This document shows, one piece after another, positions 9,317-64,000 of a DNA stretch of 64,000 nucleotides. Position numbers and translations under genes: made by a program. Each line of letters begins with the position of its first letter. Position 1 is the stretch's first letter. A model generated the notes under the pieces. It had not been told where the DNA came from. It was given only the letters and a program-made list of their open reading frames with translations, and did not search any database. This stretch comes from an uncultured Phycisphaerae bacterium (lineage in GTDB: Bacteria > Planctomycetota > Phycisphaerae > UBA1845 > PWPN01): positions 3,705 to 67,704 of the forward strand of contig CALLOB010000014.1 in NCBI GenBank assembly GCA_938005315.1, written 5' to 3'.

Positions 9317-9389
9317 ATCGCCAGCCTCGAGGGACGGTGTTTCCAGGCCGCTTCCCCGGACTTTCGCGGGGGGACGGCCCCGCGGCGCG

Positions 9390-11168
9390 CTACTCGCCGC
9401 GGATGACCCGCAGCACCTCATTCATGCTCGTGACGCCTTCGATCACCCGCTGAACGCCGATCTCCTGCATGTACAGCATGCCGGCCTTGCGGGCGGCGGC
9501 GCGGATCGCCTCCACGGGCTGCCCGTTGCGGATCTGCTCGCGCACGCCGGCGTCGGTGATCATCACCTCGAACAGGCCGGTCCGTCCGAAGTAGCCGCTG
9601 CCCTGGCAGTTCGGGCAGACCTTCGGGCGACCCTTCTCGTCGACCTGTTCCTCGGGGCGGGGCGGTCGGTAGAACACGTCGATCTTCTCGGCCGGCAGGT
9701 TGACCTTCTTCAGCAGCTCGGCATCCGGCTTGTAGGCCACGCGGCAGGCGATGCACAGCTTGCGGATCAGCCGCTGGCAGGTCACCGCCAGGATGGTGTC
9801 GGCGACGCCGTCGGTGTCGCCGGCGAGGCTGACCAGCCGCTTGAGGGCATCCAGGCTGTCCTTGGCCACGCAGCCCATGTAGATCTTCTTGGACCGGGCG
9901 GCCGAGACGGCCAGGTGGGCGGTCTCGCGGTCTAGGCAGTCGCTGACCATGACCACATCCGGCTCGCGGCGCAGCACGGTCTGCAGCTGGCGGGCATAGC
10001 TGCCCTCATGTTTGGTGGAGTCGTACGTGTACTGAGTGATGTTCTCGAGGTCCATCAGCGGCGACTGCTCGATGGTCAGCAGGTTCTGCATGAAGGCGTC
10101 GTGCGAGCGGAGGGCGGCATACAGCGTGGTGGTCACGCCGGAGGCCCGCGGCCCGGCGACGAGAATCAGCCCGGTGGGCTCCTTGAGCACCGGCTCCAGC
10201 CGCTCGAGCTGCCGGGCGTGCAGGCCCAGATCGGCGATCCGGAGGCGGTTCTGGGCGCCCACGATCCGCAGGGCGAGCTTTTCGTGCTGGGTGGTGCCGC
10301 TGGTCCGCACCTCGATCTCGGTGGTGCCGCCCGATCCGCCGGTGATGGCCGCACCGATGTTGGCCTGCTGGGGTTTGCGGCGTTCCTGGACGTCCAGTCC
10401 GGCGACGGTCTTGATGAAATCGATGGCCGCCCGGGCGGCCTCGGGGGTCAGCAGGTCATTGCGGGCCTGGACCAGTCCGTCGATGCTGTAGGCCAGGCGG
10501 GCGGCGGTGGCGCTGCAGATGAGCTCCACGTCCGTGGCCCGCCGCCACAGGGCGTCGAACAGCAGCACCTGGGCGGCCTCGAAAGCGTCGGTCTGGGTCG
10601 GGTCGGTCGGCGGAGGAACGCGCTTGCCGCGGTGGTCGTTCACCCGGACGCGTTCGACCGCGTCCATCTTCTGTTCCTTCTTCCTGGTCAGGCTCCCCAG
10701 CCAGGCCTTGATGTGCCGCGGGGTGAAGACCCGGCTGGAGGAATCGACCATGCCGTTGCGGACCGCGACGTAGGCCCCGCAGCTTCCGGCGGTGACCAGG
10801 AACCACAACCCGAAACCCGCCCAGAAGAGCCACGGCCCCTGCCAGGGCATCAGGATCCACAGGGCCAGCCCGACGACTCCGCCGCCCAGGACCACGCCGT
10901 TCCACAGCTCGCGCTTCACACGGCGAAGAAAAAGCGCGTCCTTGTCCACCCACTGGCAGAACAGCAGCCAGGGCACGATGGCCACCAGCACGCCGAGGAC
11001 CCGCCAGTAGCTGATGTATCCGCCGAAGGTCGGGCTTCCGGCCTGGGCGGTCGCGGCCGGGACGGCCCCGACGGCTGCGGGAACCAGCCACAGGCCCACC
11101 GCCGCGGCCGTGAGGGCCGACCGGTTCCAGGAGACTTCAGGATCGAAGTTGCGGTGCATGGGATACAC
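9390..11168 (-). CDS. Membrane-anchored GspE/PilB-like protein with degenerate NTPase motifs (predicted pseudo-ATPase)
   Basis: About four N-terminal TM helices, then the GspE-type N2/CTD fold. The Walker A position reads GPRASGVTTTLY (GTG Val codon at 10134..10136 where Lys is expected). The Asp box is IEQSPLM, Walker B is EPDVVMVSDCLD and the His box is KKIYMGCVAKD. The tetracysteine CIAC...CPNC and GRTGLFEV are retained. Start is GTG 11168 or ATG 11159. Confidence 0.7.
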   Translation of the reverse strand: MYPMHRNFDPEVSWNRSALTAAAVGLWLVPAAVGAVPAATAQAGSPTFGGYISYWRVLGVLVAIVPWLLFCQWVDKDALFLRRVKRELWNGVVLGGGVVGLALWILMPWQGPWLFWAGFGLWFLVTAGSCGAYVAVRNGMVDSSSRVFTPRHIKAWLGSLTRKKEQKMDAVERVRVNDHRGKRVPPPTDPTQTDAFEAAQVLLFDALWRRATDVELICSATAARLAYSIDGLVQARNDLLTPEAARAAIDFIKTVAGLDVQERRKPQQANIGAAITGGSGGTTEIEVRTSGTTQHEKLALRIVGAQNRLRIADLGLHARQLERLEPVLKEPTGLILVAGPRASGVTTTLYAALRSHDAFMQNLLTIEQSPLMDLENITQYTYDSTKHEGSYARQLQTVLRREPDVVMVSDCLDRETAHLAVSAARSKKIYMGCVAKDSLDALKRLVSLAGDTDGVADTILAVTCQRLIRKLCIACRVAYKPDAELLKKVNLPAEKIDVFYRPPRPEEQVDEKGRPKVCPNCQGSGYFGRTGLFEVMITDAGVREQIRNGQPVEAIRAAARKAGMLYMQEIGVQRVIEGVTSMNEVLRVIRGE

Positions 11169-11472
11169 GTTCCGTCACGGTCGGGGTGAACGAATGATTC
11201 GCCGCGTCCGGGTTCGCCGGCCGCAGCCGGTTCTTCCGCAGGCGCGGCTCCGGCGGCCGACGCCGATCGGCCGGGACGCCTGCCGGGCACCCGGCGCGAA
11301 AGCGGCTCCCGACGCTCCGGTCGGGGCATGATAACCGGTCCGGCCGACGGTGAGTAGCCTCGGACCGGCGGCGGGGGAAGTCGGGTCGTGACAGGTCAGG
11401 CGCCTGAAAGTCACCCCGGGCGGTCACGAATGGCCCCTGCGGGTCTGGAGAGCATTTTCGCCCCCCGGGCGT

Positions 11473-11590
11473 CTGGAGGGCCCGCTCCGTCAGGTCCGTG
11501 AAGAATGGAGGCGATCAGGTCCGCCATCGCGGACGCGAGGGACGGCGTCCCGCCGGGCGGAAGGGGACGCGCCGGAGCGCGTCCTTCGGC
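11473..11590. repeat. Diverged, compressed copy of the hairpin-repeat unit found around tRNA-Ala
   Basis: ggagggcccgctccgtcaggtcc (hairpin 11478..11497, loop CTCCGT), ggacgcgagggacggcgtcc (11531..11550) and ggacgcgccggagcgcgtcc (11565..11584). Order and orientation match the 30.7-31.7 kb units. Confidence 0.6.
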
Positions 11591-11615
11591 GGCCGGGGGA
11601 GGTTGCCGGAAGAGC

Positions 11616-13010
11616 TCAGCCGGTCGAGGCCGCGGCGAAGACGGTCTTGTTCCGGCCGGCCTGCTTGGCTGCGTACAGGGCCACGTCGGCCTCGTGGATC
11701 AGGGCCTCGGCGGTGGCCGCGTGGGTGGTGCGAAGGCTGGCGATGCCGATGCTCAGCGTGGCCGGAAGCTCCGGTCCCAGCCGGGCGAGTTCCTCGGTGA
11801 AACGGGCGGTGATCCGGCGGGCTAGGGCGGCTGCGGCGGGGGCGGAGGTCTGCGGCAGCAGGACCACGAACTCGTCCCCGCCGAACCGCGCGGCCACGTC
11901 GGCGTCGCGCAGTTCGCCGGCGATCACGTTCGCGGCGGTCAGGAGGACCTCGTCGCCCTTGCGGTGACCGAACCGGTCGTTGATCTCCTTGAAGCGGTCC
12001 AGGTCGAACATCATGCAGGTCAGGTCCGAGTCGTAGCGTTCCGCGGCCGCGAACTCCCGGGCGATGACCTCGGTGAAGTAGCGGCGGTTATAGACGCAGG
12101 TCAGCGGATCCCGGGCCGCGAGCTGCTCGAGATCCCGGGTGCGCTCCTGGACGCGGCGCTCCAGCTCGGCGTTGAGCTTCAGCAGCTCGTACCGCGACTG
12201 CGAGAGCCGGTCGGCCATGTCGTTGAAGGCCCGGGCCAGATCGCCGATCTCGTCGCGCGAGACCACCTTCGCGCGGGCCTCCATGCTGCCCTCGGCCAGG
12301 GCCCGGGCGGTGCGGGCCAGTTCGTTGAGCGGCGCGACCACCCGGCGGACGACCAGCAGGCTCAGGGGCACGACCAGCAGCAGCAGCAGGATGATCGCCC
12401 GGGTGAGGTAGTCGGCCACCTGATCGAGATTGGCTCGGATGTCGGACACGTCGGTGGCCAGTCGCAGGTAGCCGCGGATGCTGGCCCGGGCCGGGTCGCG
12501 TCCGGCGGACTGGGGGCTGAAGACCGGCACGGTGACGTCGATGCATACCGGTCCGCGGCCGCCGGCGAGGGTCCGCAGGGCCGGACGACCGGGGTTTTCG
12601 ATCGCCATTTTCGAGCGGCCTTCGGCTAGCACCTCGTCCAGCAGTCCGGCCGAGGCTTCGCCGGCCGCCAGGACGTGCCCGGTGGGGTCGGTGAACACCG
12701 CGTACGCCACACGCTGGGAGCGGATCAGATCGTTGACATGCCCCACCAGGCCGGAGAGGTCCGGCTCGGCCACGGCGGCGGCCGCGGCGGTCGCCTGAGA
12801 AACCGCCCAGTCCCGTGCCCAGCGTAATTCGTTGCCGTATAGCCGCAGGGCGGTGGTTCGCAGCGTGACCGCCACGCCGGCGCCGGTGATGACCAGCGTC
12901 GAGACCGTAAACAGCAGCGAGGCCTTGAACTGCAGCGAGCCGAAGACGTCTCGCCAGCCTCCCCGCCGGACGGGATTCTCCGGCTCAGTCATCATCCCTG
13001 ACGATTCCAT
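11616..13010 (-). CDS. Diguanylate cyclase (membrane sensor-HAMP-GGDEF)
   Basis: C-terminal DPLTCVYNRRYF...FDLDRFKEINDRFGHRKGDEVL...RDADVAARFGGDEFVVLLP has an intact GGDEF and an RxxD I-site. TM plus HAMP-like region (VVRRVVAPLNELARTARALAEG). Start is uncertain: ATG 13010, ATG 12995/12992 or TTG 13079. Confidence 0.8.
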   Translation of the reverse strand: MESSGMMTEPENPVRRGGWRDVFGSLQFKASLLFTVSTLVITGAGVAVTLRTTALRLYGNELRWARDWAVSQATAAAAAVAEPDLSGLVGHVNDLIRSQRVAYAVFTDPTGHVLAAGEASAGLLDEVLAEGRSKMAIENPGRPALRTLAGGRGPVCIDVTVPVFSPQSAGRDPARASIRGYLRLATDVSDIRANLDQVADYLTRAIILLLLLVVPLSLLVVRRVVAPLNELARTARALAEGSMEARAKVVSRDEIGDLARAFNDMADRLSQSRYELLKLNAELERRVQERTRDLEQLAARDPLTCVYNRRYFTEVIAREFAAAERYDSDLTCMMFDLDRFKEINDRFGHRKGDEVLLTAANVIAGELRDADVAARFGGDEFVVLLPQTSAPAAAALARRITARFTEELARLGPELPATLSIGIASLRTTHAATAEALIHEADVALYAAKQAGRNKTVFAAASTG

Positions 13011-13385
13011 TGTTGACGCCGCAACTCCCGCTCTTGTTCGACCGCAAGGACCATACGATTCATTTCCGGCCTCGGGCAAACACCCCCAACGGGTTTTCCT
13101 GCCCTGCGGATCGTTTCTGCCGGCGTCGAAGACTCCCGGCGCCCCTGGGACCGTCCTCCGCGGGCCGGGCGTCGAGGCCGGGCGGGGAAGATCGGGCGGC
13201 TCGGAACACGCGGCGGCGCGCGGTGAGTCCCCCCGGAGAATCGACCGGAAAACAGCGGGACTTGATCCGGGAAGGTCCGAAAAAACGGGTTCAACCGCTT
13301 CTCCCCGGCTTCGACGGCGGGTCCGGGCCGGTTCGGCGGGTGGGGCAGGAGGTTCCCGGAGCCTCTGGAGAAGCCCCCGAGCGGC

Positions 13386-53253: not shown

Positions 53254-56200
53254 CTATGGCGCCGGGTTGTTGGCGGGCTCCGGCGGTCCGATCGCGACGG
53301 TCTCCGCGCGGGCACGTTGATGCCTCAGCAGCGTCTCACGCAGCGCGGCCAGGGCCTCGACGGAGCGGGTGGCCTTTCCGGTCAGCCGTCCCGACAGAGG
53401 CCTGTCCGGCGATGCGGACGGGGGAAGGACGACCCCGGCCGTCGCCGCCTGGCTCAGCAGCTCCTCCAGCCGCCGGCAGGCCGACTCGGCCAGGGCCCGC
53501 TGCTGGGCGAGCTCCGCGGCCTGGGCGCGCGTGACCTCCCGGGCGGAGTCGATCTGGCGGGTGCGGGCCTCCAGCTCGGCGCACAGCCGGGATGCCCGCT
53601 CCAGCATCGCGGCGGTGTCGCCGGCCTGGACCTTGCTCTCAGATACCCGGGCCGCGAGCTCCGCGGCCCGTGCCGCGGTCTCGGATTCGGCCAGTTGTGC
53701 GGAGCGGACGGTCTGCTGCAGCCGCAGGACCAGTTCCCGGGCCTGGCCGAAGCCTGCGTCCATGCGGTCCACCACGGCGGCCGCGCGGGCCACGGCATCC
53801 AGAATGCTTTTCTGGCCGCTCCGGGCGTCGGCCTGGGCAGCGGACAGGATCTCGCGGATACCATTTGACTCGGCCGCCGCAGCAGTGATCTCCTTCCGGA
53901 CGGCGGCGGCTTCGTCCAGCGTGCGGGCCAGAGCCTGATGCTGTTGGGAGGTGCGCTCGAACAGGTCGGCCATTCGTTCCTGCCGCTGTTTGAGAGCGTC
54001 CAGCGCTTCGGACGCCAGCATGCCACTGATGTGCCGGTCGAGAGTCTGCAGCTGCGCGATCCGGTCTTCGGCGCCCGACAATTGCGTGCTCAAGGCCGCC
54101 GCATCGGCCTTTGCCTGCTCCAGAAGCGTCGCGAGTTGCGTCGCACGGTCGGCCATGGCCCGGTGGGCGGCGGAGACCTGGGCGGCGATTCGGCCGCCGG
54201 CGGCGTTGACGGCCTTGAGCAGTTCGTCGATGCGCGTCCGGGACTCGGCGACCTGCCGCTCAACGCGACCGGCGGCATCTTCAGCGGTCCGTTCGACCCG
54301 GTCGGCGATGGAATCCAGCCTCGCGGCTTCCTCGACGGCCGCCCGCTGAGCGGCCAGGAGGTCGGCAGCGGCGGCCCCGAGGTTGCCTTCGAGCCCGGCC
54401 AGCTGGTCCGCGAGACGGCGTCCCTCGGCCACCTGGGCGGTCAGTGTTTCCAGCAGCTCGCCGGCCTGGGAAGCGGCGGATTGTCCCGCGGCCGTGGCGG
54501 CCCGGGCCTGGTCGATCAGCCCGGCGACCTGTTGCTGCGCCTGGGAAAGGCGGTTTCCAAGATCGTCGTGGGTCTGGAGCAGCCTTTGCTCGAGTTCACT
54601 GACGCTTTCGGCGCCTGTCCGCGCGGCCTCGGCGGCCTTCTCGGCGCGGAGGGCCTGGGCCAGGGCGGCCGCGGCGCGGGTTTGCAGGGTATCGAGGGTC
54701 TGTGCAGCCTGCCCGATCCCGGCCTCCAGGCGTGCGGCGCGTTCATCGGCCTGTCGGGTGAGGTCGTCGCAACGGCCGGCGGCGGTTTCGAGCCGGGCGG
54801 CCAGTTGTGCGGAGGACTGTCCCGCGGCTTCCGCGCGGCCGATCCACTCGGCCAGCTCTGCCTTCAGTGTCTCGGCGCGGCTGACGCCGGTATCCAGATC
54901 CTTTTCACGGACCTCGGCCCGGTTGATGAGCTCTTGCAGGCCCGCCTGGCGGCATTCCGAGAGGTGTATCCCGCTGAGCAGCCGGTCCACTGCTTCCCTG
55001 GCATCGCCGGTGGCCTGCCGAACCTGCTGGGCGACCTGCCGACCTGAAGCCGAGGCCTCGCCGAGCGCATCAACAGCCTTGGAGGCCTCGGCCAGCACCG
55101 TGTTGGCGTGCGCCAGTCGTCCGAGGGATTCCTCGGAGGCGGCCAGCAGCTTTTCAAGAGCCTCCTGCCGGGAGGCACATCGTTCGTTCAGGGCCGACAG
55201 GTTCTCGACCTGTCGGTCGGCGCGGATCGAAGCGTCTTCCACTCCCGCCCGCAGTTCCTGGACGGTCCGGCTCGCCTCCAGAAGGCTTGCGCGGGCGCTC
55301 AGGGCCTCCTCGGCCGCGGCACGAGCGGCCGTGCAGGCGGCGTGCGTTTCGTTGAGAAGGGCCTCGAGGGAGGCGGCCTGCTCCTGGATGTCCCTGAATC
55401 GGGCCGGATCCAGCAGTGCCTCCAGCTTTCCGCTGCCGGCCGCAAGGCGGACCAGCAGGTCCTGCGCGGTTCGACATCCCCGGTTGAGATCCTCGAGCTG
55501 TCCGGCGACCTGGGCCGTCAGTCCGGCCAGAGCGCCCCCGCGCTGTTCGAGGGAGGCGGTTTCCTCGCCCAGCCTGGTTCGCGCGAGCTCGGATGCAAGC
55601 GTGGCCTGCTGCAGTGCCTGTTCCTGTTCGGCCGCCTCGGCGAGTCGGCGTGCCAGACGCCCGATGTCCTCGGCACATTGTGCCGCGATCAGTCGCGCAC
55701 GGCGGCGGAGCCGGGCATAGCGTTCCCCGGCGGCGGCCGAACCGACTGCGGCCTCCTGGAGCGTTGCCTTCTGCCGGTCCGCCTGGCGAATCAGCTCCCG
55801 GAGTTCCTCGATGCGATCGGCCAGAGCCTGGGCGGCCGGTCGGCTCTCGCGGCACTCGTCCCGGAGGTTGCGAAGCGTGCCCTGCAGATCGGCCTGCAAT
55901 GTCGTTCCCTGCCGGACGACGTTTTCGAGATCCCGGCACTGCGCGGCGGCGCGTTCGATGACCCGCTCGGCCATCTGGGCCTGTCCCTGGAGATGCTGGG
56001 TGGCCCACAAGGCATGGGCGTCCACGGGATGGCTCGGTGCGCCGGCGATCAGGCGGGGATCGACCGATGGGGCGGACTGTCCGATGAGCAGCGGAGCGGC
56101 GGGGTGACCGGCAGGACCCGTGTCGGCGGCAGGCCCCGGCGCGGCGGTTTCGGGGCCCTCGAGCAGGTCCTGGAGCGCCGAGACCACGCAGTCCCGATCG

Positions 56201-56961
56201 ACTTCCGCCAGGCCCCGGCCGTAGGCCGCCAGCAGGGCGCCGTCGGCGATCTGGTTGATCAGCCGCGGGATGCCCCCGGAGCGGTCGTGAATCAGATCGA
56301 CGGCTTCGTCGTTGATGATGGACGCATCCTTCGCCCCGGCGACGGTCAGGCGATGGCGGATGTAGTTGCGCGTCTGGTCGTGTTCCATCGGTGTCAGCCG
56401 ACAGAAATCCGCGATCCGCTGCCGAAGCGGGGTCATCTCCGGCCGCTGCAGTGTCTGCAGGAGCCCGGGTCGGCCGAGAAGCACGACCTGGACCAGCTTG
56501 GACGCCTCCTGTTCCAGGTCCCCGAGCATCCGCACGTATTCCAGCATCGCGGGGCTCATGTCCTGGGCGTCGTCCAGCAGCACGACCACGAAGCGGTCCA
56601 GCAGCAGCTGGGCCCGCAGGTGAGCCTTGAGCCGCTCCAGCAGTTCGCCGTCGCTCTGTGCGGGCCGGTGGCGGATCTCCAGGGCCCGCAGGACGGCGCA
56701 CAGCAGCTCGTGCCCGTCGGCCGGAATGTGGTCCACCGCGGCGACGTCCGCGCGCCCGGCGAGGCTGGCGACCAGCATGCGGGCCAGCAGCGTCTTGCCC
56801 ATGCCGGCCTCGCCGGTCACCACGGTGATGCCGCGGCGCTGGGTCACGCCGTAGAGCAATGCCGCCAGCGTTTCCTCGTGCCCGGCGGTGCGAAAGTAGA
56901 AGGCCGGGTCCGCCGTGTTCGCGAACGGCACGCGCTCGAGCTGGAAGTGTTCAGCGTACAT
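53254..56961 (-). CDS. ExeA/GspA-like AAA+ ATPase fused to a ~900-aa coiled-coil region (1235 aa)
   Basis: ATG 56961. MYAEHFQLERVPFANTADPAFYFRTAGHEETLAALLYGVTQRRGITVVTGEAGMGKTLLAR (ExeA N-terminal signature, Walker A), VVVLLDDAQ (Walker B). From about aa 330 on, uninterrupted A/E/L/Q/R-rich heptad-like sequence. Confidence 0.75.
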   Translation of the reverse strand: MYAEHFQLERVPFANTADPAFYFRTAGHEETLAALLYGVTQRRGITVVTGEAGMGKTLLARMLVASLAGRADVAAVDHIPADGHELLCAVLRALEIRHRPAQSDGELLERLKAHLRAQLLLDRFVVVLLDDAQDMSPAMLEYVRMLGDLEQEASKLVQVVLLGRPGLLQTLQRPEMTPLRQRIADFCRLTPMEHDQTRNYIRHRLTVAGAKDASIINDEAVDLIHDRSGGIPRLINQIADGALLAAYGRGLAEVDRDCVVSALQDLLEGPETAAPGPAADTGPAGHPAAPLLIGQSAPSVDPRLIAGAPSHPVDAHALWATQHLQGQAQMAERVIERAAAQCRDLENVVRQGTTLQADLQGTLRNLRDECRESRPAAQALADRIEELRELIRQADRQKATLQEAAVGSAAAGERYARLRRRARLIAAQCAEDIGRLARRLAEAAEQEQALQQATLASELARTRLGEETASLEQRGGALAGLTAQVAGQLEDLNRGCRTAQDLLVRLAAGSGKLEALLDPARFRDIQEQAASLEALLNETHAACTAARAAAEEALSARASLLEASRTVQELRAGVEDASIRADRQVENLSALNERCASRQEALEKLLAASEESLGRLAHANTVLAEASKAVDALGEASASGRQVAQQVRQATGDAREAVDRLLSGIHLSECRQAGLQELINRAEVREKDLDTGVSRAETLKAELAEWIGRAEAAGQSSAQLAARLETAAGRCDDLTRQADERAARLEAGIGQAAQTLDTLQTRAAAALAQALRAEKAAEAARTGAESVSELEQRLLQTHDDLGNRLSQAQQQVAGLIDQARAATAAGQSAASQAGELLETLTAQVAEGRRLADQLAGLEGNLGAAAADLLAAQRAAVEEAARLDSIADRVERTAEDAAGRVERQVAESRTRIDELLKAVNAAGGRIAAQVSAAHRAMADRATQLATLLEQAKADAAALSTQLSGAEDRIAQLQTLDRHISGMLASEALDALKQRQERMADLFERTSQQHQALARTLDEAAAVRKEITAAAAESNGIREILSAAQADARSGQKSILDAVARAAAVVDRMDAGFGQARELVLRLQQTVRSAQLAESETAARAAELAARVSESKVQAGDTAAMLERASRLCAELEARTRQIDSAREVTRAQAAELAQQRALAESACRRLEELLSQAATAGVVLPPSASPDRPLSGRLTGKATRSVEALAALRETLLRHQRARAETVAIGPPEPANNPAP

Positions 56962-57498
56962 CCTGATCGCGCCTCTGGTCCCGCCGTCAGGCACGCGTGG
57001 TCGGGAAGCCCCGCGTTGGCGGGCGTCCCGCCGGCGAGGCGGTGCCTGGGCAGACGGACTCCTCCCCAGCGGGATATCGGACAGGCGCCCGGCGGACCGG
57101 AGTTATTGGGCGGAGGATCGATGGGCCGCTCGCGCGCAAGCATGTCCGGACGCGCGGCGGCAGGATACTATCGGACCTTGATGGACGCCCGTTCCGGGCT
57201 TCAGCGGGGCCGGGCACGCCGGCGGATTGTTCCGCGAAAACCCCTGTGACGTCCTTCTGTCCGGCAAGCCGCGAAGACCGGCGCATGCGATCGCGGCGCG
57301 GGTCTTTATCGGTCGGGCGGATCCGGGTCTGCTCCGTCGGTCCGGGAGGTCCGGCAAATACGTCAATTGCGCGCCGCATCGCTTCGATATTACCGGGGAC
57401 GAATCGTGCACCGAGGGGGCGGCGCTTCCAGCGCGCCGGCCCCGGCAGGGCAGATCCGCCGGGGAGCGTGCGTCCCGGGCGGGAACCCAGGCGGCCGG

Positions 57499-58848
57499 AT
57501 GCGGGCCGGGAGGTCCTTGATCGTGAGCGGTTGGATGCCCATATGGCTGGCGGCCGTCGGGTTGCTGTCGGTGGTCGGGTGGCTGTGCTGGCGGCGGTGC
57601 GGGCGGCGGAGCCCGGCAGGGTCGATCGACCTGATCGGCCGCAACCTGTCGCGGGTGCCCGCGGAGATCGCCGGGGACCTGCGCCGGCTGCAGCTGGACG
57701 ATTCGGCCGACGAGCTGGCCCGCGGGTGGAACATGCTTCTGCAGGCGGTGACGGCCGCCCGGAAGGAGCTCGAGGAACTGCGGCTGAGCCGGCACGCCCG
57801 CGAGACCCTCGAACGCTACCAGGCCCGCTGGATGACCGGCTTGGTGGCCCGGATGCCCTGCGGCCTGATCACCGTGTCGGACGACTGGACGATCACGTAC
57901 GCCAACGCGGCGGCCGAGCGCATGCTGCATGCCGGCAACGGGGGCCTGAAAGACCGGTCGCTGCGCGATTTCATCCGTAACGACCTGAGCCCCTTCCATC
58001 CCGGGCGGGGCATCGCCCTGGACCGCACCTTCGAGCTCAAGACGGCCGACGCGGCGGTCCGGCTGACCTCGCTGGCGAACGACGACGCCGAGTGCGGCGA
58101 GGCGGTGTTCTTCCTGCACGACGTCAGCCAGCAGAAGGCCGTCGAGCGGGAACGCAGCCAGTTTCTCTATCATGTGACCCACGAGCTGCGGACGCCGCTG
58201 ACCAACATCCGGGCGTACGCCGAGACGCTCTCCGAGGGCGTGCTCAAGGACGAGGCGATGCTCCGGGAGTGCTACAACGTCATCGTCGGCGAGACCCAGC
58301 GGCTTTCGCGGCTGGTGGAGGACATCCTCAGCCTCTCCCAGCTGGAGGCCGGGGCGGCGCGGCTGACGATGGACGATGTCAACACCGCCCGGCTGGTGCG
58401 GCAGGTCGTCGAGGACATGCAGGCTCAGGCGGACGACAAGGGTGTCGAGCTGATCCTCTCGCTTCCGGCCAAGATGCCCACCATCCGCGGCGACAAGGAC
58501 CGCCTGGCGGTGGTGCTGACCAACCTCATCGGCAACGCCGTCAAGTACACCCCTTCGCGCGGCCGTGTTGAGGTTCGTTGCGAGGATGACGGGCAGCGCT
58601 TCCGGGTCGAGGTGCGCGACACCGGCATCGGCATCGCGCCCGAGGACCAGCCCCGGGTGTTCGAGAAGTTCTACCGTTCGGCGGACGAGCGCGTGGCCCA
58701 GCAGCCGGGAACCGGGCTGGGCCTGGCCCTGGCCATGGAGATCGTCCGGGCTCACGGGGGAACGATCGAGCTGCGCAGTACGCCGGGCGAGGGCTCGGTT
58801 TTCACCGCGATTCTGCCGGTGGGCCGGCTGGCGGCCGTGCGGACGTGA
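57499..58848 (+). CDS. Membrane sensor histidine kinase (PAS-HisKA-HATPase_c)
   Basis: FLYHVTHELRTPLTNIRAYAETL (H-box), LIGNAVKYT (N-box), DTGIGI, GTGLGLA. Start may instead be GTG 57523 (GGGAGG 9 nt upstream) or ATG 57535. Confidence 0.85.
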   Translation: MRAGRSLIVSGWMPIWLAAVGLLSVVGWLCWRRCGRRSPAGSIDLIGRNLSRVPAEIAGDLRRLQLDDSADELARGWNMLLQAVTAARKELEELRLSRHARETLERYQARWMTGLVARMPCGLITVSDDWTITYANAAAERMLHAGNGGLKDRSLRDFIRNDLSPFHPGRGIALDRTFELKTADAAVRLTSLANDDAECGEAVFFLHDVSQQKAVERERSQFLYHVTHELRTPLTNIRAYAETLSEGVLKDEAMLRECYNVIVGETQRLSRLVEDILSLSQLEAGAARLTMDDVNTARLVRQVVEDMQAQADDKGVELILSLPAKMPTIRGDKDRLAVVLTNLIGNAVKYTPSRGRVEVRCEDDGQRFRVEVRDTGIGIAPEDQPRVFEKFYRSADERVAQQPGTGLGLALAMEIVRAHGGTIELRSTPGEGSVFTAILPVGRLAAVRT

Positions 58849-58956
58849 GTCCCCGGCTCCGGGCCCGTCACCGGTCGCGGGCGGCACCGGAATTGCCTCG
58901 TGCCGGGCTCGGCGATCGACCGGCGGGCCGGACGGAAGGAGGCAAGGCGACAGACG

Positions 58957-59337
58957 ATGGCGACGATCGTGGTGGCCGAGGACGACGCCCACATCAGCCG
59001 GGTGGTCTGCATGTGGCTGGCCCAGAAGGGGCACCGGGTGCTGGAGGCCCACAACGGAGCCCGGGCGCTGGAGATCCTCCGCGGCCAGGCGATCGACATC
59101 CTGATCAGCGACGTGAACATGCCGGTGATGAACGGCATCGATCTGGTTATCACCGCGTGCCGCGAGCGGCTGGTGGGAACCGGTGTGATCCTGCTGTCCA
59201 GCCGCGCGGACCAGGCGGGAATCCGGCAGGCGCTGGCCGGTCAGAAGGTGACGCTCAGACCCAAGCCGTTCAGCCCTTCGGGGCTGGCCAGGGACGTCGA
59301 GCGGATGCTGGTGGAAGACAGCATGGCGGCCGGGTGA
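58957..59337 (+). CDS. Single-domain response regulator (REC only)
   Basis: GGAAGGAGG upstream. MATIVVAEDDAHI...ILISDVNMPVMNG...RPKPF. Confidence 0.85.
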   Translation: MATIVVAEDDAHISRVVCMWLAQKGHRVLEAHNGARALEILRGQAIDILISDVNMPVMNGIDLVITACRERLVGTGVILLSSRADQAGIRQALAGQKVTLRPKPFSPSGLARDVERMLVEDSMAAG

Positions 59338-59366
59338 GGCCGTTCGTCGGCGAGAAGGAACCGCGG

Positions 59367-60899
59367 ATGCCCAGCAGCGAGGTGATGGAACCCCGGACCG
59401 GTACCCCTGCGGAGGCCATTGTCTCCACCCGCGCCCTTCTGGAGGAGGTCCTCGGGGTGGAGGTGGGGGTCTTCTCGCGCGACGCCGCCGAGCCGGGGGC
59501 GACCTGCCGCCGGTTGTGCATTTCGGGCGACGGCCCGAACCGGCTGGCCGGGGCGTGTGTCCTCATCCGGCTGGCGGCCTCGGACGCCGCCGTGGCCGGC
59601 AGCGGGGTGCCCCGGATCTGCGAACGGGGCTTCGCGGTCAGCGTGCATGATGGAGAGGTTTCCAACCGCCGGGTGGTCCTGCTGGAGCGGGCCAGCGCGG
59701 GCCGCGGAGAGGGGTTGTCGATCGAGCGGCTCCGGGCGGCGGCCGGGCTCGTCGAGCGAAGCGAGCGGCTGGCGGATGAAAACCGCGGGCTGATCGCCGA
59801 GGTGCTCAGCGGTTACGAGCAGCTCAACGTGATTTTCGAGGTGACCCAGCAGTTCGGCCGGGCCCGCGACGCCGCGGAGGTCAAGCACTTCCTGGTGCGG
59901 CGGCTGGCCGAATCCCTCAACTGCGACTGGGGCGTCTGCCTCTCGGAGGCCGACGGCGTGCTGTGGTGGTCCAACGAGCAGGACATCGATCGCGACCGCT
60001 GCGTGGCGGAGATCCGCGGTCGGCACGCCGACGCCGTGGAGGAGGTGTTCGGCCAGCAGTCGATCGTCGCGCGGAACGCGGACAGCGCGTCCGGCCCTCA
60101 CGGATCGCGTCTGCTGTTCTGCCCGCTGGGAGCCAGCGACGAGCGTACCGACCTGGTGGTCTTCTCGCGGGGCGGCGATCGCCCGGACTTCACGTCGGGC
60201 GAGATCCGGATGGTGGACTCGGTTCTGCAGCACGGTCAGCAGGTGATCTTCAACCTCCGGCTCAACGATCGCCTGCGGACCATGGCCTACGGCGCCGTGC
60301 AGGCCCTGGTCAGCGCGATCGAGAAGAAGGACGACTACACCAGCGGCCACTCGGAGCGGGTCGGGCTGCTGTCGCGGCTGATCGGCGAGGAGATGAAGCT
60401 TCCCCCCGAGCAGCTGCAGGATCTGGAGTGGGCCGGCCTGCTGCACGACGTCGGCAAGATCGGCATTCCCGATGGGGTGCTGACCAAGCCGGGCTCGCTG
60501 ACGCCGGAGGAGTTCGCCCAGATCAAGGGCCATGCCCGGATGAGTTACGACATCGTCGCTCCGATCGAGGCCTTCGCCACGGTCCGCGACGTGGTGCTGT
60601 ACCATCACGAGGTGCCCGACGGCACCGGCTACCCCGAGGGCCTTCGCGGCGATCAGATTCCGCTGCTGGCCCGCATTGTGCACGTCGCCGACACATTCGA
60701 CGCCCTGACATCCACACGGTCGTACCGTCAGGCGTTTCCCATCGCCCGGGCCCTGGAGATCATGCGGCGCGAGAAGCACACCAAGCTGGACGCCCAGGTG
60801 GTGGACGCCTTCGAGCGGGCCCTTCAGCGGTACCAGGCTGCACACCCGGATGCGTTTCACGCGACATTCCAGCATGCGCTGGAGGAGGCGACGCCATGA
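59367..60899 (+). CDS. HD-GYP c-di-GMP phosphodiesterase with GAF-like N-terminal region
   Basis: TSGHSERVG...LLHDVGKIGIP...YHHEVPDGTGYPEGL...HVADTFDALTSTRSYR (complete HD and GYP signatures). Confidence 0.85.
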   Translation: MPSSEVMEPRTGTPAEAIVSTRALLEEVLGVEVGVFSRDAAEPGATCRRLCISGDGPNRLAGACVLIRLAASDAAVAGSGVPRICERGFAVSVHDGEVSNRRVVLLERASAGRGEGLSIERLRAAAGLVERSERLADENRGLIAEVLSGYEQLNVIFEVTQQFGRARDAAEVKHFLVRRLAESLNCDWGVCLSEADGVLWWSNEQDIDRDRCVAEIRGRHADAVEEVFGQQSIVARNADSASGPHGSRLLFCPLGASDERTDLVVFSRGGDRPDFTSGEIRMVDSVLQHGQQVIFNLRLNDRLRTMAYGAVQALVSAIEKKDDYTSGHSERVGLLSRLIGEEMKLPPEQLQDLEWAGLLHDVGKIGIPDGVLTKPGSLTPEEFAQIKGHARMSYDIVAPIEAFATVRDVVLYHHEVPDGTGYPEGLRGDQIPLLARIVHVADTFDALTSTRSYRQAFPIARALEIMRREKHTKLDAQVVDAFERALQRYQAAHPDAFHATFQHALEEATP

Positions 60900-62341
60900 G
60901 TCACGCCGCCGGCGGCGAATCGAAAACGACGCATCCGGTGCTGATCGGTTCGGCCGGAGCCATCGGCGCGGTGACGCTGCTGAGTCTGGGCGACCAGAAC
61001 CCGGCATTCTTCCAGCTGGGGACGGTGGTGCTGACCCTTTCGCTGGTGCCGTTGTCAATCGGGCTGAACCGCCGCTGTGGGGCGATGCTGGGGCTGCTCT
61101 TCGGCGTGGTCTGGGCCGCGACCCGCCACGTGATGATCGAGGATACCGGCGGCTGGGTGCTGCTTTCGCCGATCAGCCTGCTGGCGATGGGCTCGCTGAC
61201 CGCGCTGGGTTCGCTGGCCGGGTCGGTGCTCGAGTCCGGGCCCGACCCCGCGTCCCCGGAAGGCGTGGTCGCAGACGGGACCGGCTTCGCGACCCGTACG
61301 CGGCGGGCCTCCGGCCGCGAGCGGCCCGAGATCGTCTCGGCCGTGCAGGCGATCCTGGCGGGCAACCGGGACTGGCTCCTGCAATGGGACCAGCAGGGCG
61401 ACCCATGGGTCTCGTTCGACAACCACGTCCGGCAGTGGATTCATACGGCCACCGGCGCGCGGCGGGTGCGCTGCTTCAGGCTCGACGAGCACGGACGGCC
61501 GACGCCCATGAACCGCTCGACCGCCGACCAAGCCGCGAGACCGTCGAATGAGGCCCTGGTCGCTCACGTCCTGGCCCACAACCGCCGCTACGTGGCCGAC
61601 GGCCCCGGCTCGGGTCCGCTGCTGCGGGAGCTGGCCGAGCGGAGCGGCGGCTCGCCGGCGTGGATCGTGCCGATCCGCGACCGCGAGGGCCCGATCGGAG
61701 TCATGACCGCCGAAGAACTGCCCGCGGGTGCCGACCAGGACCGGCTCGAGCTGGTCGCCGACCTGCTGGAGGCCCTCTGGCTGCACGTGCATCACGCCAA
61801 CCAGCTGCGCACCGCGTGGCTGCTCGACCGGGCCTCGGGGGTCCTGAACCGCGGCGAGTTCCTGGGGCTGCTGGAGGAGACCGTGGCTGCCGGGCATGAG
61901 CTGCGCGAGCCGGTGGTGGTGATGGCGGTGAGCATCGAGGGCCTGCGCGGGCTGGACGACACCGGCCAATGGCAGGTGCGCGACGAGGTGGTGTGTGCCG
62001 TGGGGCAGGCCATCCGCAACGGCCTGCGGAAGGACGACGCGGTCGGGAGGTTCAGCGACGCCCAGTTCGTCGCCGTGATGCGCAGGCTCGACGCGGGTCT
62101 GGCCGAGCTCATCGCCCAGAAGATCGTGGGCGCGATCCAGGACATCATCGCCCGGCTGGACGCGCGAACGCCGCTGCAGCTCCGCGCCGGCCTGGCCGGA
62201 ACCGGTTTCGAGAAGATCGAGCCGGAGGAACTGTTGCGGCAGGCGATGGCCGCCCAGCAGCGCGCCCGGCGCGAAAACGTGCCGATCAGGATCGCACCGG
62301 CCCGCGGGCGGGGCGAGGCGGTGGAGGTGGCCCGGCGGTGA
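60896..62341 (+). CDS. 4-TM / GAF-like / degenerate GGDEF protein (RxxD I-site retained)
   Basis: ATGA overlap. GGDEF-fold region LLDRASGVLNRGEF...VVMAVSIEGLRGLDD. The active-site position reads RKDDAVGRFSDAQF (62027..62068), so GGDEF has become SDAQ while RxxD sits at the canonical 5-aa distance. Confidence 0.75.
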   Translation: MSHAAGGESKTTHPVLIGSAGAIGAVTLLSLGDQNPAFFQLGTVVLTLSLVPLSIGLNRRCGAMLGLLFGVVWAATRHVMIEDTGGWVLLSPISLLAMGSLTALGSLAGSVLESGPDPASPEGVVADGTGFATRTRRASGRERPEIVSAVQAILAGNRDWLLQWDQQGDPWVSFDNHVRQWIHTATGARRVRCFRLDEHGRPTPMNRSTADQAARPSNEALVAHVLAHNRRYVADGPGSGPLLRELAERSGGSPAWIVPIRDREGPIGVMTAEELPAGADQDRLELVADLLEALWLHVHHANQLRTAWLLDRASGVLNRGEFLGLLEETVAAGHELREPVVVMAVSIEGLRGLDDTGQWQVRDEVVCAVGQAIRNGLRKDDAVGRFSDAQFVAVMRRLDAGLAELIAQKIVGAIQDIIARLDARTPLQLRAGLAGTGFEKIEPEELLRQAMAAQQRARRENVPIRIAPARGRGEAVEVARR

Positions 62342-62673
62342 AGGTCAACCGTTACGAGCTGGCCGGCGTGCCGGTGGTGTGTCCCCGGGAGGCCCTGACG
62401 CAGGCGGATTGCGCGCAGGTCCGGGCCGCCCTCGAGGAGGCCTTCGGGGGCGGGCAGGCGGCGGTGGTGCTGGACCTCGCGGAGGTGGCCTTCATCGACA
62501 GTGCCGGCCTGGAGATGCTGTGCGAGGTGTCGGCAGGGCAGCGCGCCCGCGGTGGTCGCCTCAAGCTGGCGGCCTGCGGCGAGATCTGCGAGGAAGCCCT
62601 CCGGATCACCGACCTGCGGGGCCGGTTCGAGCTGTTCGCCTCGCCGGAGGAGGCCGCGGCGAGCGTGGTGTGA
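62338..62673 (+). CDS. STAS-domain protein (anti-sigma-factor-antagonist-like)
   Basis: GTGA overlap start. VVLDLAEVAFIDSAGLEMLCEV carries the conserved Ser. Confidence 0.7.
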   Translation: MKVNRYELAGVPVVCPREALTQADCAQVRAALEEAFGGGQAAVVLDLAEVAFIDSAGLEMLCEVSAGQRARGGRLKLAACGEICEEALRITDLRGRFELFASPEEAAASVV

Positions 62674-62675
62674 CC

Positions 62676-64000
62676 ATGGAAACGACCATCAAGACGCAGG
62701 AACGCCTGGGAACCCTCCTGCTCCGCTCCGGGGCGATCACGGAGGAGGATCTCAAGGCGGCGCTGAAGCTCCAGCGTCAGGACCGCGGCCGGCTGGGCGA
62801 GACCCTGATCGAGATGGGCGTGCTCTCGCCGCAGACGCTGCTGGACATCCTGGCCAGGCGTCTGGGGGTCAAGGGCTGTCTGTTGCGGCACGGGCTGGTG
62901 GACCCCGCGCTGCGCGACCTGATCGACCGCGACGAGGCCCGGCGGTTGAAGGTGCTGCCGCTGTTCAAGGTTCACAACCGGCTCACCGTCGCGATGGTCG
63001 AGCCGCAGCGTCTGCCGGTGATCGACCGCCTGGCGGCCCTGACCGGCTGTGAGATCAACCCGGTGCTGGTGCTGGAGCGCAACTACGCGGAGTTCGCCGA
63101 TCGCTACCTCTCGGAGGAAGTGTCGGTGGACTCGTTCCTGCTCAGCCTGAAGGAACAGAACGTCGAGTTCGTCAACAAGGAGACGGTGGACGACGACGTG
63201 CTGACCGACCTGTCGCGCACCGACAGCAGCCCGGTGGTGAACCTGGTCAACCTCTCGCTGCTGACGGCGATCCGCGACCGGGCCAGCGACGTGCACATCG
63301 AGCCGGACCGCAAGCATATGCGCGTCCGCTACCGTATCGACGGCGTGCTTCGCGAGCTGCTGACCGCCCCGCTGGCCATGCACGCGGGCGTGACCTCGCG
63401 CATCAAGGTCCTGGCCAAGATGGACATCGCCGAGAAGCGGTTGCCGCAGGAGGGACGCGTGCGGATCATCGCCGAGGGGCGCGACGTCGATCTCCGCGTC
63501 TCGACGATGCCGACGCTGCTGGGCGAGAAGGTGGTCGTGCGGCTCCTGGACCGCCAGAACCTCAATCTGGACATGGCCGGGCTGGGACTGCGCGACGCGG
63601 CGCTGGAGAAGTTCCGCCGGATGCTGCTGCGTCCCCACGGCCTGGTGCTGGTCACCGGACCGACCGGCAGCGGCAAGACCACCACGCTGTACTCCGCGCT
63701 GGATCTGCTGCGTTCCATGACGATCAACATCGTGACCGTCGAGGATCCCGTCGAGTACCAGCTGGACATGATCAACCAGATCAACGTCCAGGAGCACATC
63801 GGCCTGACCTTCAGCCGGGCGCTGCGTTCGATCCTGCGGCAGGACCCCGACGTGATCATGGTCGGCGAGATCCGCGACACCGACACCGCCCGCGTGGCCG
63901 TCCAAGCGGCGCTCACTGGCCATCTGGTGCTCAGCACGCTGCACACCAAGGACTGCGTGGGCGCCCTGGCCCGGCTGACGGACATGGGCACAGAGCCTTA
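62676..64000 (+). CDS. GspE/PilB/MshE-family secretion ATPase with tandem MshEN-type motifs; 3' end outside the window
   Basis: Not in the ORF track because no stop lies in the window; I translated it by hand from ATG 62676. METTIKTQERLGTLLLRSGAITEEDLKAALKLQRQDRGRLGETLIEMGVLSPQTLLDILARR...ASDVHIEP...LPQEGR...LVTGPTGSGKTTTLYS...VEDPVEY...QDPDVIMVGEIRD...TGHLVLSTLHT. Confidence 0.9.
   Translation, partial: METTIKTQERLGTLLLRSGAITEEDLKAALKLQRQDRGRLGETLIEMGVLSPQTLLDILARRLGVKGCLLRHGLVDPALRDLIDRDEARRLKVLPLFKVHNRLTVAMVEPQRLPVIDRLAALTGCEINPVLVLERNYAEFADRYLSEEVSVDSFLLSLKEQNVEFVNKETVDDDVLTDLSRTDSSPVVNLVNLSLLTAIRDRASDVHIEPDRKHMRVRYRIDGVLRELLTAPLAMHAGVTSRIKVLAKMDIAEKRLPQEGRVRIIAEGRDVDLRVSTMPTLLGEKVVVRLLDRQNLNLDMAGLGLRDAALEKFRRMLLRPHGLVLVTGPTGSGKTTTLYSALDLLRSMTINIVTVEDPVEYQLDMINQINVQEHIGLTFSRALRSILRQDPDVIMVGEIRDTDTARVAVQAALTGHLVLSTLHTKDCVGALARLTDMGTEP

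Follow-up and report, generated by a model that had tools for sequence, protein, structure and literature searches.

What does it mean when the genes of a two-component system, of two proteins of cyclic di-GMP (c-di-GMP) signalling and of a STAS protein stand directly in front of the gene for a motor ATPase? The question is raised by a locus of an uncultured Phycisphaerae bacterium, located at 57499–64000 of a 64,000-nucleotide (nt) stretch of contig CALLOB010000014.1 that was analysed as a whole and is called the window below. A first-pass annotation of the window had described six genes there, namely those of a PAS histidine kinase, a REC-only regulator, an intact HD-GYP phosphodiesterase, a degenerate GGDEF protein with four transmembrane (TM) segments, a STAS protein and a secretion or pilus ATPase. 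We propose, with a probability of about one half, that these six genes make up the first half of a pilus operon of 12 genes that carries its own post-translational c-di-GMP control module. The order of the putative operon would be histidine kinase, REC, HD-GYP, degenerate GGDEF, STAS, PilB-like ATPase, PilC/GspF, PilM, PilN, PilO/GspM, a protein of 186 amino acids (aa) and a prepilin. Its gene content, motifs, synteny and tight coupling are matters of direct observation, and the features inside the window are these:

57499–58848, plus strand: histidine kinase, the operon's first gene (HisKA and HATPase_c)
58957–59337, plus strand: REC-only response regulator (Response_reg, 60.3 bits)
59367–60899, plus strand: predicted HD-GYP phosphodiesterase (HD_5, 138 bits)
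60896–62341, plus strand: protein with four TM segments, a GAF domain and a degenerate GGDEF domain (GGDEF, 45 bits)
62338–62673, plus strand: STAS protein (STAS, 47.2 bits)
62676–64000 (window end), plus strand: PilB/GspE-family ATPase (T2SSE, 359 bits)
62703–62861, plus strand: tandem MshEN motif in the N-terminus of the ATPase (NF053729, 63.4 bits)
56995–57498, 504 nt: divergent intergenic region 5' of the kinase gene, the presumed promoter region of the operon

The region holds many spurious open reading frames because its G+C content is about 70%, and the six plus-strand genes were singled out from them by domain searches, which together with the coordinates bear out the genes, their strand, their order and their position as first described. 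Earlier the genes had been said to be joined by 4-nt overlaps or short gaps. This holds for the ATGA overlap between the HD-GYP and degenerate-GGDEF genes, the GTGA overlap between the degenerate-GGDEF and STAS genes, the 29 nt between the REC and HD-GYP genes and the 2 nt between the STAS and ATPase genes; it does not hold for the kinase and REC genes, which lie 108 nt apart. There are no terminator-like sites within 56800–64000, scans of 56–64 kb for sigma-70 consensus sites, terminators and Rfam families including riboswitches came out empty, and a search for repeats in 56995–57498 returned chance-like short matches and nothing better. None of the five signalling proteins contains a DNA-binding domain in Pfam and NCBIfam searches.

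The same arrangement recurs in many relatives. A scan of one genome per species gave 47 loci, all of them in metagenome-assembled genomes (MAGs) and nearly all labelled Planctomycetota, Phycisphaerae or "Planctomycetales". Presence was counted only at observable positions, where the contig is long enough:

Histidine kinase: 37/37 observable loci
REC: 35/38 observable loci
HD-GYP: 40/40 observable loci
STAS: 37/41 observable loci
ATPase: 33/37 observable loci
PilC: 32/35 observable loci
PilM: 31/34 observable loci
Pilin: 24/28 observable loci

The conserved genes all lie on the same strand at constant offsets, and the order from histidine kinase through REC, HD-GYP, degenerate GGDEF, STAS, ATPase and PilC to PilM is kept in about 35–40 species, with identities that fall to 54% for the ATPase and 26% for the degenerate-GGDEF protein. 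Two megabase contigs that were picked by ATPase similarity alone (L060 and L061) carry the whole module too. The 4-nt overlap between the degenerate-GGDEF and STAS genes is found in 31/41 loci, and the gap between the STAS and ATPase genes is at most 10 nt in 28/41. The first-pass observation that two-component, c-di-GMP and STAS proteins stand directly 5' of a PilB/GspE-type ATPase therefore describes one conserved unit.

A reduced variant consisting of kinase, HD-GYP, degenerate-GGDEF and pilin-like genes occurs in L046 (3411–7984), L047 (7326–11992) and L053 (7759–12104). REC, STAS, ATPase, PilC and PilM are missing together from these three loci, their HD-GYP protein is without the Cys-rich N-terminus described below, and the genes that follow the module in L047 and L046 are unrelated to pili. 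One locus labelled Anaerolineaceae (L055, 1–4614) was left out as likely chimeric; its degenerate-GGDEF C-terminus and that of L044 agree at every aligned residue, the genes after it are unrelated, and the contig is probably mis-assembled or mis-binned. The other locus in a non-planctomycete MAG is L015 (Hyphomicrobiales).

Which machine does the ATPase serve? It was noted earlier that the window runs out without a pilin, platform or secretin gene in this array, which is literally true and an artefact of a window that ends inside the ATPase gene. The genes beyond 64000 can be read from a contig found by exact-protein look-up (L003), which differs from window positions 60839–64000 by 2 mismatches in 3162 nt. 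Here the ATPase gene is followed on the same strand by genes for GspF/PilC (T2SSF, 150.7 bits), a PilM-like protein (45 bits), a PilN-like protein, a GspM/PilO-like protein and then the 186-aa protein, which is bitopic with one TM segment and matches no family. In a close relative that shares the upstream genes of the window (L057 and L058, STAS 88% identical), the operon is closed by a 158-aa prepilin. What lies downstream, as read from L003 and the relatives, is pilus or secretion genes and not unrelated ones. From the type IVa set the PilB-like, PilC/GspF, PilM, PilN-like and PilO/GspM-like proteins and the prepilin were found, with a secretin and a TPR protein in some clades, where the two are encoded convergently after the pilin or as a pair 5' of the kinase gene. 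No homologues of secretin, TPR protein or pilin were found elsewhere in the window, and neither PilT nor a prepilin peptidase was seen near any locus. The lineage of the window has a single prepilin at the operon end. After the major prepilin, L011 (18624–21354), L013 (18218–21239) and L061 (20190–21761) have a GspH-like protein and more N_methyl (minor pilin) genes. An 814-aa protein with no Pfam or NCBIfam match is encoded convergently to the prepilin in L058 (14804–17248, minus strand) and L057 (17054–19498), and it sits where the TPR protein and secretin stand in other clades.

These genes would best fit a type IVa-pilus-like type IV filament machine, with a role like that of type II secretion systems (T2SS) as a live rival. 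According to this rival, which we consider somewhat unlikely, the module gates protein secretion by c-di-GMP. With the GspF model the platform protein indeed reaches 291 bits, against 240 bits with PilC, and the fifth machine protein matches GspM (31 bits), so that the GspF and GspM models lie slightly above the PilC and PilO models in the lineage of the window; yet PilO itself gives Pfam matches in L004 and L060, and PilM and PilN are separate genes with no fused GspL. The full-length ATPase, including its N1 domain, is closest to the type IVa PilB proteins of Geobacter and Myxococcus in the PDB, with an alignment over residues 9–567 (501 bits), whereas the match to GspE covers residues 179–567 only (421 bits). 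PilB (TIGR02538) is the best-scoring family with 579 bits against a cut-off of 675.65, and GspE (TIGR02533), aligned from residue 88, reaches 575.6 bits against 630.25, so both cut-offs are missed. The GspH-like pseudopilins of L011, L013 and L061 and the lack of PilT near any locus would suit secretion, while the convergent TPR protein and secretin recall the PilF/Tgl–PilQ pair.

The ATPase is truncated by the window end at residue 441 and has a full length of 590 aa in L003. Its Walker A box (GPTGSGKTTT) and Asp box (VEDPVEY) are present together with DPDVIMVGEIRD and TGHLVLSTLHT, which confirms the intact Walker A, Walker B, Asp and His boxes noticed before, and the L003 protein (T2SSE, 462.8 bits) adds the C-terminal tetracysteine CPAC...CKKC, the remaining hallmark of the PilB/GspE superfamily. 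The first reading had overlooked the N-terminus. Residues 10–62 consist of two 24-residue MshEN motifs, RLGTLLLRSGAITEEDLKAALKLQ and RLGETLIEMGVLSPQTLLDILARR, separated by the 5-residue spacer RQDRG; the NCBIfam model for this MshE-related c-di-GMP motif, NF053729, passes its 38-bit cut-off, and the region aligns with MshE (5htl) and with the GSPII domains of PilF. The sequence fits the relaxed tandem MshEN pattern (PMC5013675) and departs twice from the strict consensus, in that position 11 of motif I is Ala and position 24 of motif II is Arg. We regard it as a predicted c-di-GMP-binding MshEN domain. Among the orthologues, the first Arg of motif I is replaced by Gln (EQLG/EQIG) in the clade closest to the window and by Lys in many other cases, ATPases with this residue altered including L006, L007, L013, L015, L017, L019–L022 and L041; in motif II nearly all retain the Arg/Lys, L039 having Gln. 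Judged by these residues, clades may differ in how their motor binds the messenger.

A second candidate receptor is the degenerate-GGDEF protein. Hydropathy gives three strong TM segments and one weaker, which agrees with the four-TM degenerate GGDEF protein first described, and the point missed at that time is the retained I-site. SDAQF (62054–62068) stands where GG(D/E)EF is expected, and the I-site RKDD (62027–62038) precedes it in the layout RKDD-AVGRF-SDAQF. GG(D/E)EF is found in 0/49 sequences of the family, replaced by SDAQF, SDDRF or ADDRF (SD(A/D)(Q/R)F or a near variant), and the substrate region is degenerate as well (xxEGxRxxDD in place of the canonical DxDxFKxxND). RxxD lies exactly five residues ahead of the degenerate motif in 48/49. 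The residues of an active diguanylate cyclase are thus lacking and those of an I-site are present, and the best reading of the sequence is a predicted I-site c-di-GMP receptor without cyclase activity. The family is small and sharply bounded: of 1.84 billion representatives, about 210 clusters match at E<=1e-30, compared with 46,983 generic GGDEF matches at E<=1e-3. FimX GGDEF structures are among its sequence matches in the PDB.

The remainder of this protein is less clear. A GAF_2 match of 24.8 bits is below the cut-off. An AlphaFold2 model built on a 10-sequence alignment has a mean predicted local distance difference test (pLDDT) score of 60 and a GGDEF domain mis-modelled as all-helical, so that the GAF part alone is usable. 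In this model the middle domain folds as GAF and PelD chains are among the best fold matches with the lowest root-mean-square deviations (3.8–4.8 Å), the Foldseek E-values of the PelD GAF fold being weak (0.02–0.1) because the model is poor. PelD, the Pel receptor of Pseudomonas aeruginosa, combines TM helices, a GAF domain and a degenerate GGDEF domain whose RxxD is the receptor site. The architecture of the two proteins is alike; they differ in that no sequence match links them, and in that the neighbours are pilus genes in all loci and not pelABCDEFG. Membership of the PelD family itself was rejected, as no chain of PelD came up when the PDB was searched with the family profile (E<=1).

An enzyme that could lower the messenger is encoded immediately 5' of this receptor. 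The HD-GYP protein has its catalytic domain at residues ~300–495, with HD at 60444–60449 and GYP at 60627–60635; the HD_5 match and both intact catalytic motifs, HDxGK (LLHDVGK) and HHExxDGxGYP (HHEVPDGTGYP), substantiate its description as an intact HD-GYP protein. HDxGK, HHExxDGxGYP and DxFDALxxxRxYR are kept in 45–46 of the 46 sequences. Its best PDB sequence matches are V-cGAP3 (5z7c) and PmGH (4mcw). The N-terminal ~300 residues hold four conserved Cys and match nothing in Pfam or the PDB, and a single-sequence AlphaFold2 model of the first 310 residues is unusable (pLDDT 36). The Cys form the pattern CxxxC...C...C at residues ~45–90 (59367–59700) in about two thirds of the orthologues, the remaining ones being without the Cys-rich region altogether; this Cys4 region may be a metal or redox sensing module.

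The input to the module would come from the two-component pair at the operon start. The histidine kinase has HisKA (69.9 bits) and HATPase_c (110.7 bits) domains, the H-box THELRTPL and a single N-terminal TM segment at residues 8–26 by hydropathy. Residues 88–440 are covered by a PhoR/PnpS-type alignment (NCBIfam PnpS 275 and PhoR 237 bits, both below cut-offs), and by its sequence it is a membrane-anchored PAS-like kinase of PhoR/PnpS-like architecture. In the adjoining receiver, the phospho-acceptor Asp52 is encoded at 59110–59112, and D52, T/S81 and K103 are kept in 40/40 orthologues, so a kinase with a HisKA H-box stands next to a receiver with the Asp, Thr/Ser and Lys of a two-component system. 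The assignment as a PAS histidine kinase with a REC-only regulator stands, the PAS matches themselves lying slightly under the Pfam cut-off (21.8 vs 23.1 bits).

With an MshEN motif in the motor and a kept I-site in the membrane protein, what had been described as three signalling layers next to a motor becomes a coherent messenger–receptor circuit. Each act of binding, each phosphotransfer and the sign of the regulation are our inference, and the proposed course is the following. The membrane-anchored PAS kinase would phosphorylate the REC-only protein, which in its phosphorylated form would switch the soluble HD-GYP protein and so lower c-di-GMP locally, as a local sink. The change might be read by two receptors, the membrane GAF/degenerate-GGDEF protein through its RxxD I-site and the ATPase through its MshEN motif. 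The STAS protein, translationally coupled to the degenerate-GGDEF protein and encoded by a gene that abuts that of the ATPase, may act as an adaptor that docks the signalling complex on the motor, possibly gated by phosphorylation of its conserved Ser. Filaments would be assembled with c-di-GMP bound, and assembly would be shut off when the phosphodiesterase is active.

Several points weigh against this course of events. A diguanylate cyclase is missing from the operon. The nearest relative with a solved structure is an enzyme specific for cyclic GMP-AMP, so the HD-GYP protein may have another substrate than c-di-GMP. REC could act on the ATPase instead of on the HD-GYP protein. The relaxed tandem MshEN motif is found in just 13/42 ATPases, with one half of it in 25, so that some of the motors may lack c-di-GMP binding; the structural model of the degenerate-GGDEF protein is poor (pLDDT 60); and all carrier organisms are uncultured, their functions being read from sequence. 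An exploratory mirror-tree comparison, a weak method with small residual correlations, gives a mixed picture. Raw correlations are all high (0.5–0.87) because the genes share one history. The residual is 0.36 for the kinase and REC (p=0.0005, the positive control), 0.34 for STAS and the HD-GYP middle domain, 0.34 for the degenerate-GGDEF protein and the HD-GYP middle domain, and 0.24 for STAS and the N-domain of the ATPase. This pattern would fit, if weakly, a complex of several proteins around the HD-GYP regulatory region, and the signal between STAS and the domains of the degenerate-GGDEF protein is absent (0.09 and -0.07) despite the overlap of their genes, a further point on the negative side.

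A complex of this kind could also work in another way. As a rather unlikely alternative, an HD-GYP::degenerate-GGDEF::adaptor complex driven by phosphorylation would control the ATPase by contact, and turnover and binding of c-di-GMP would be dispensable. There is a precedent in Xanthomonas campestris pv. campestris, where the RpfG–GGDEF–PilZ complex controls pilus motors without a need for cyclase activity or for ligand binding by PilZ (PMC3749722); the DxD of the canonical GGDEF domain that is required for that interaction is, however, S/C-x-E in the proteins described here. The scaffold would explain why the GGDEF domain is inactive by sequence in every member and why most ATPase orthologues have an incomplete MshEN motif, and the ATGA and GTGA overlaps suggest stoichiometric partners. 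It sits less well with the catalytic residues of HD-GYP, kept almost throughout the family, and the 48/49 conservation of RxxD would be hard to explain were ligand chemistry irrelevant.

The STAS protein gives rise to a further alternative. It is a single domain of 111 aa with a TIGR00377 score of 37.8 bits (cut-off 53.45), and Ser55 of SpoIIAA type, encoded at 62500–62502, lies within IDSAGL. The STAS fold and a phosphorylatable Ser in DS(x)G are thus those of SpoIIAA/RsbV proteins. The best PDB matches are anti-sigma antagonists (RsfB 8ih8, TM1442), and D54 is kept in 44/44 and S55 in 42/44 sequences. On these grounds the protein might belong to a classical partner-switching cascade, with a kinase/anti-sigma factor and a phosphatase encoded elsewhere, and might control a sigma factor as a mere passenger of the operon. 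We find this very doubtful. No RsbW/SpoIIAB-type kinase or PP2C phosphatase is listed among the Pfam-annotated neighbours (10 kb or to the contig end) at six related loci (L004, L006, L007, L057/L058, L060 and L061), nor in the scanned part of the window, which upholds the first remark that no partner-switching kinase or phosphatase is visible. A passenger would hardly be retained in 37/41 observable loci with the 4-nt overlap in 31 of 41, or be missing at exactly the three loci L046, L047 and L053 that also lose REC, ATPase, PilC and PilM and in which a pilin-like gene stays. A word-indexed homologue search with the STAS protein gave 3 matches, too shallow to address STAS–ATPase adjacency beyond the clade. 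Finally, a chance juxtaposition of signalling genes and a pilus operon in one genome, for which the 108-nt gap and hence a possible internal promoter might speak, is refuted by the synteny of the identical order in dozens of species at the identities given above.

Returning to the c-di-GMP control module, its most particular element would be the STAS protein. We tentatively consider it, as a possibility well short of even odds, to be a novel type of cofactor for a pilus extension ATPase, acting in a motor-docked signalosome with the PelD-like membrane receptor and the HD-GYP protein; such an assembly would be a membrane-anchored local c-di-GMP sink plus two receptors. If true, hardware of the partner-switching type would here, for the first time, be seen wired directly to the motor of a type IV filament and not to a sigma factor.

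How far is such a module already known? Its components and the general principle all are. Motors of MshE/PilB type need c-di-GMP at MshEN for pilus function (PMC5013675, PMC11656802), so control of a motor ATPase by c-di-GMP is an established principle. MshE of Vibrio cholerae, PilB of Myxococcus xanthus, PilF of Thermus thermophilus and PilB2 of Clostridium perfringens belong to the same ATPase family and share the tandem 24-residue motif with its 5-residue spacer. In those systems the c-di-GMP enzymes are encoded elsewhere, whereas here HD-GYP, a second receptor and STAS are encoded directly 5' in the operon, the motif is relaxed or half-lost in many orthologues, and the scores are below equivalog cut-offs.

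The closest functional precedent, which the first-pass annotation had not considered when it did not recognize the order as a described module, is the post-translational pilus control of Xanthomonas, in which RpfC–RpfG(HD-GYP)::GGDEF::PilZ docks on PilT/PilU (PMC3749722). Both systems have a sensor kinase, a receiver, an HD-GYP protein, a GGDEF partner without needed cyclase activity, a small adaptor and a motor ATPase. The Xanthomonas genes are scattered, with REC fused to HD-GYP, PilZ as the adaptor and retraction ATPases as the targets; in Phycisphaerae the genes form one operon, REC is separate, the adaptor would be STAS and the target an extension ATPase, and the GGDEF partner is membrane-anchored, GAF-bearing and without the canonical DxD. 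In the FimX–(PilZ)–PilB complexes of P. aeruginosa and Xanthomonas citri, a degenerate-GGDEF receptor promotes assembly through the extension ATPase (PMC5595344, PMC8389850, PMC11656802). FimX is a soluble protein with REC, PAS, degenerate GGDEF and degenerate EAL domains that takes the messenger at EAL, whereas the protein described here is a membrane protein without EAL and its binding is predicted at the I-site. The HsbR/HsbA–HsbD and SiaABCD systems of P. aeruginosa use a STAS or STAS-like protein with a phosphorylatable Ser to link a phosphorelay to a GGDEF protein, and HsbD modulates type IV pilus assembly (PMC5085249, PMC8457831). They possess a cognate kinase, a phosphatase and an active cyclase; here neither kinase nor phosphatase is linked, the GGDEF domain is inactive and the STAS gene abuts that of the motor ATPase.

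For the set of HD-GYP, PelD-like I-site receptor and STAS, translationally coupled and placed right before an MshEN-type motor, we have provisionally found no description. Literature searches, whose coverage is incomplete, returned no paper on Phycisphaerae together with c-di-GMP and pilus and none that links STAS with PilB, and both "STAS" and "HD-GYP" are absent from a 2024 review of PilB cofactors. The earlier judgement that this is not a described module provisionally stands for the gene set, which is otherwise a variant of a known principle and by no means unrecognizable.

Several neighbouring genes of the window may be recorded here. Divergent from the operon, at 53254–56994 on the minus strand, is the gene of a 1246-aa protein that begins with an ExeA/MshM-like AAA_22 ATPase (TIGR03015, 202 bits, below cut-off) and goes on, over the other ~950 residues, as a coiled coil rich in Ala, Gln and Glu with SMC-like matches. 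This giant ATPase was rejected as a part of the machine, since none of the 47 species loci has it within 10 kb and it stands next to the operon only in the near-identical relative L057. The upstream genes that were scanned (35.4–53.3 kb except 48.8–51.2 kb) are mostly housekeeping or unassigned and none is pilus-related. Elsewhere in the window, a c-di-GMP enzyme is again paired with a secretion-type ATPase, at 7430–13079 on the minus strand, where a HAMP-GGDEF protein (11616–13079, 158 bits, GGDEF motif intact, RxxD I-site present) is followed directly 3' by a membrane-anchored T2SSE-family protein (9390–11168) and then by a CvpA-like membrane protein (7430–9421), all on the minus strand. The T2SSE-family protein is probably inactive because the Lys of its Walker A (GPRASGVTTT) is replaced by Val.

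A central open question in c-di-GMP biology is how one diffusible messenger yields specific outputs, and the usual answer is local signalling through coupled enzymes and receptors. The operon would be a complete candidate for such a local circuit in a single predicted transcription unit, comprising kinase, receiver, phosphodiesterase, membrane receptor, adaptor and receptor-bearing motor. Since the arrangement is kept across a whole class of Planctomycetota, its partners, stoichiometry and wiring can be tested with few recombinant proteins. STAS proteins may in this way join the possible regulators of type IV filament motors, and the locus would offer a first handle on the regulation of surface filaments in Phycisphaerae, a lineage known here from uncultured MAGs only.

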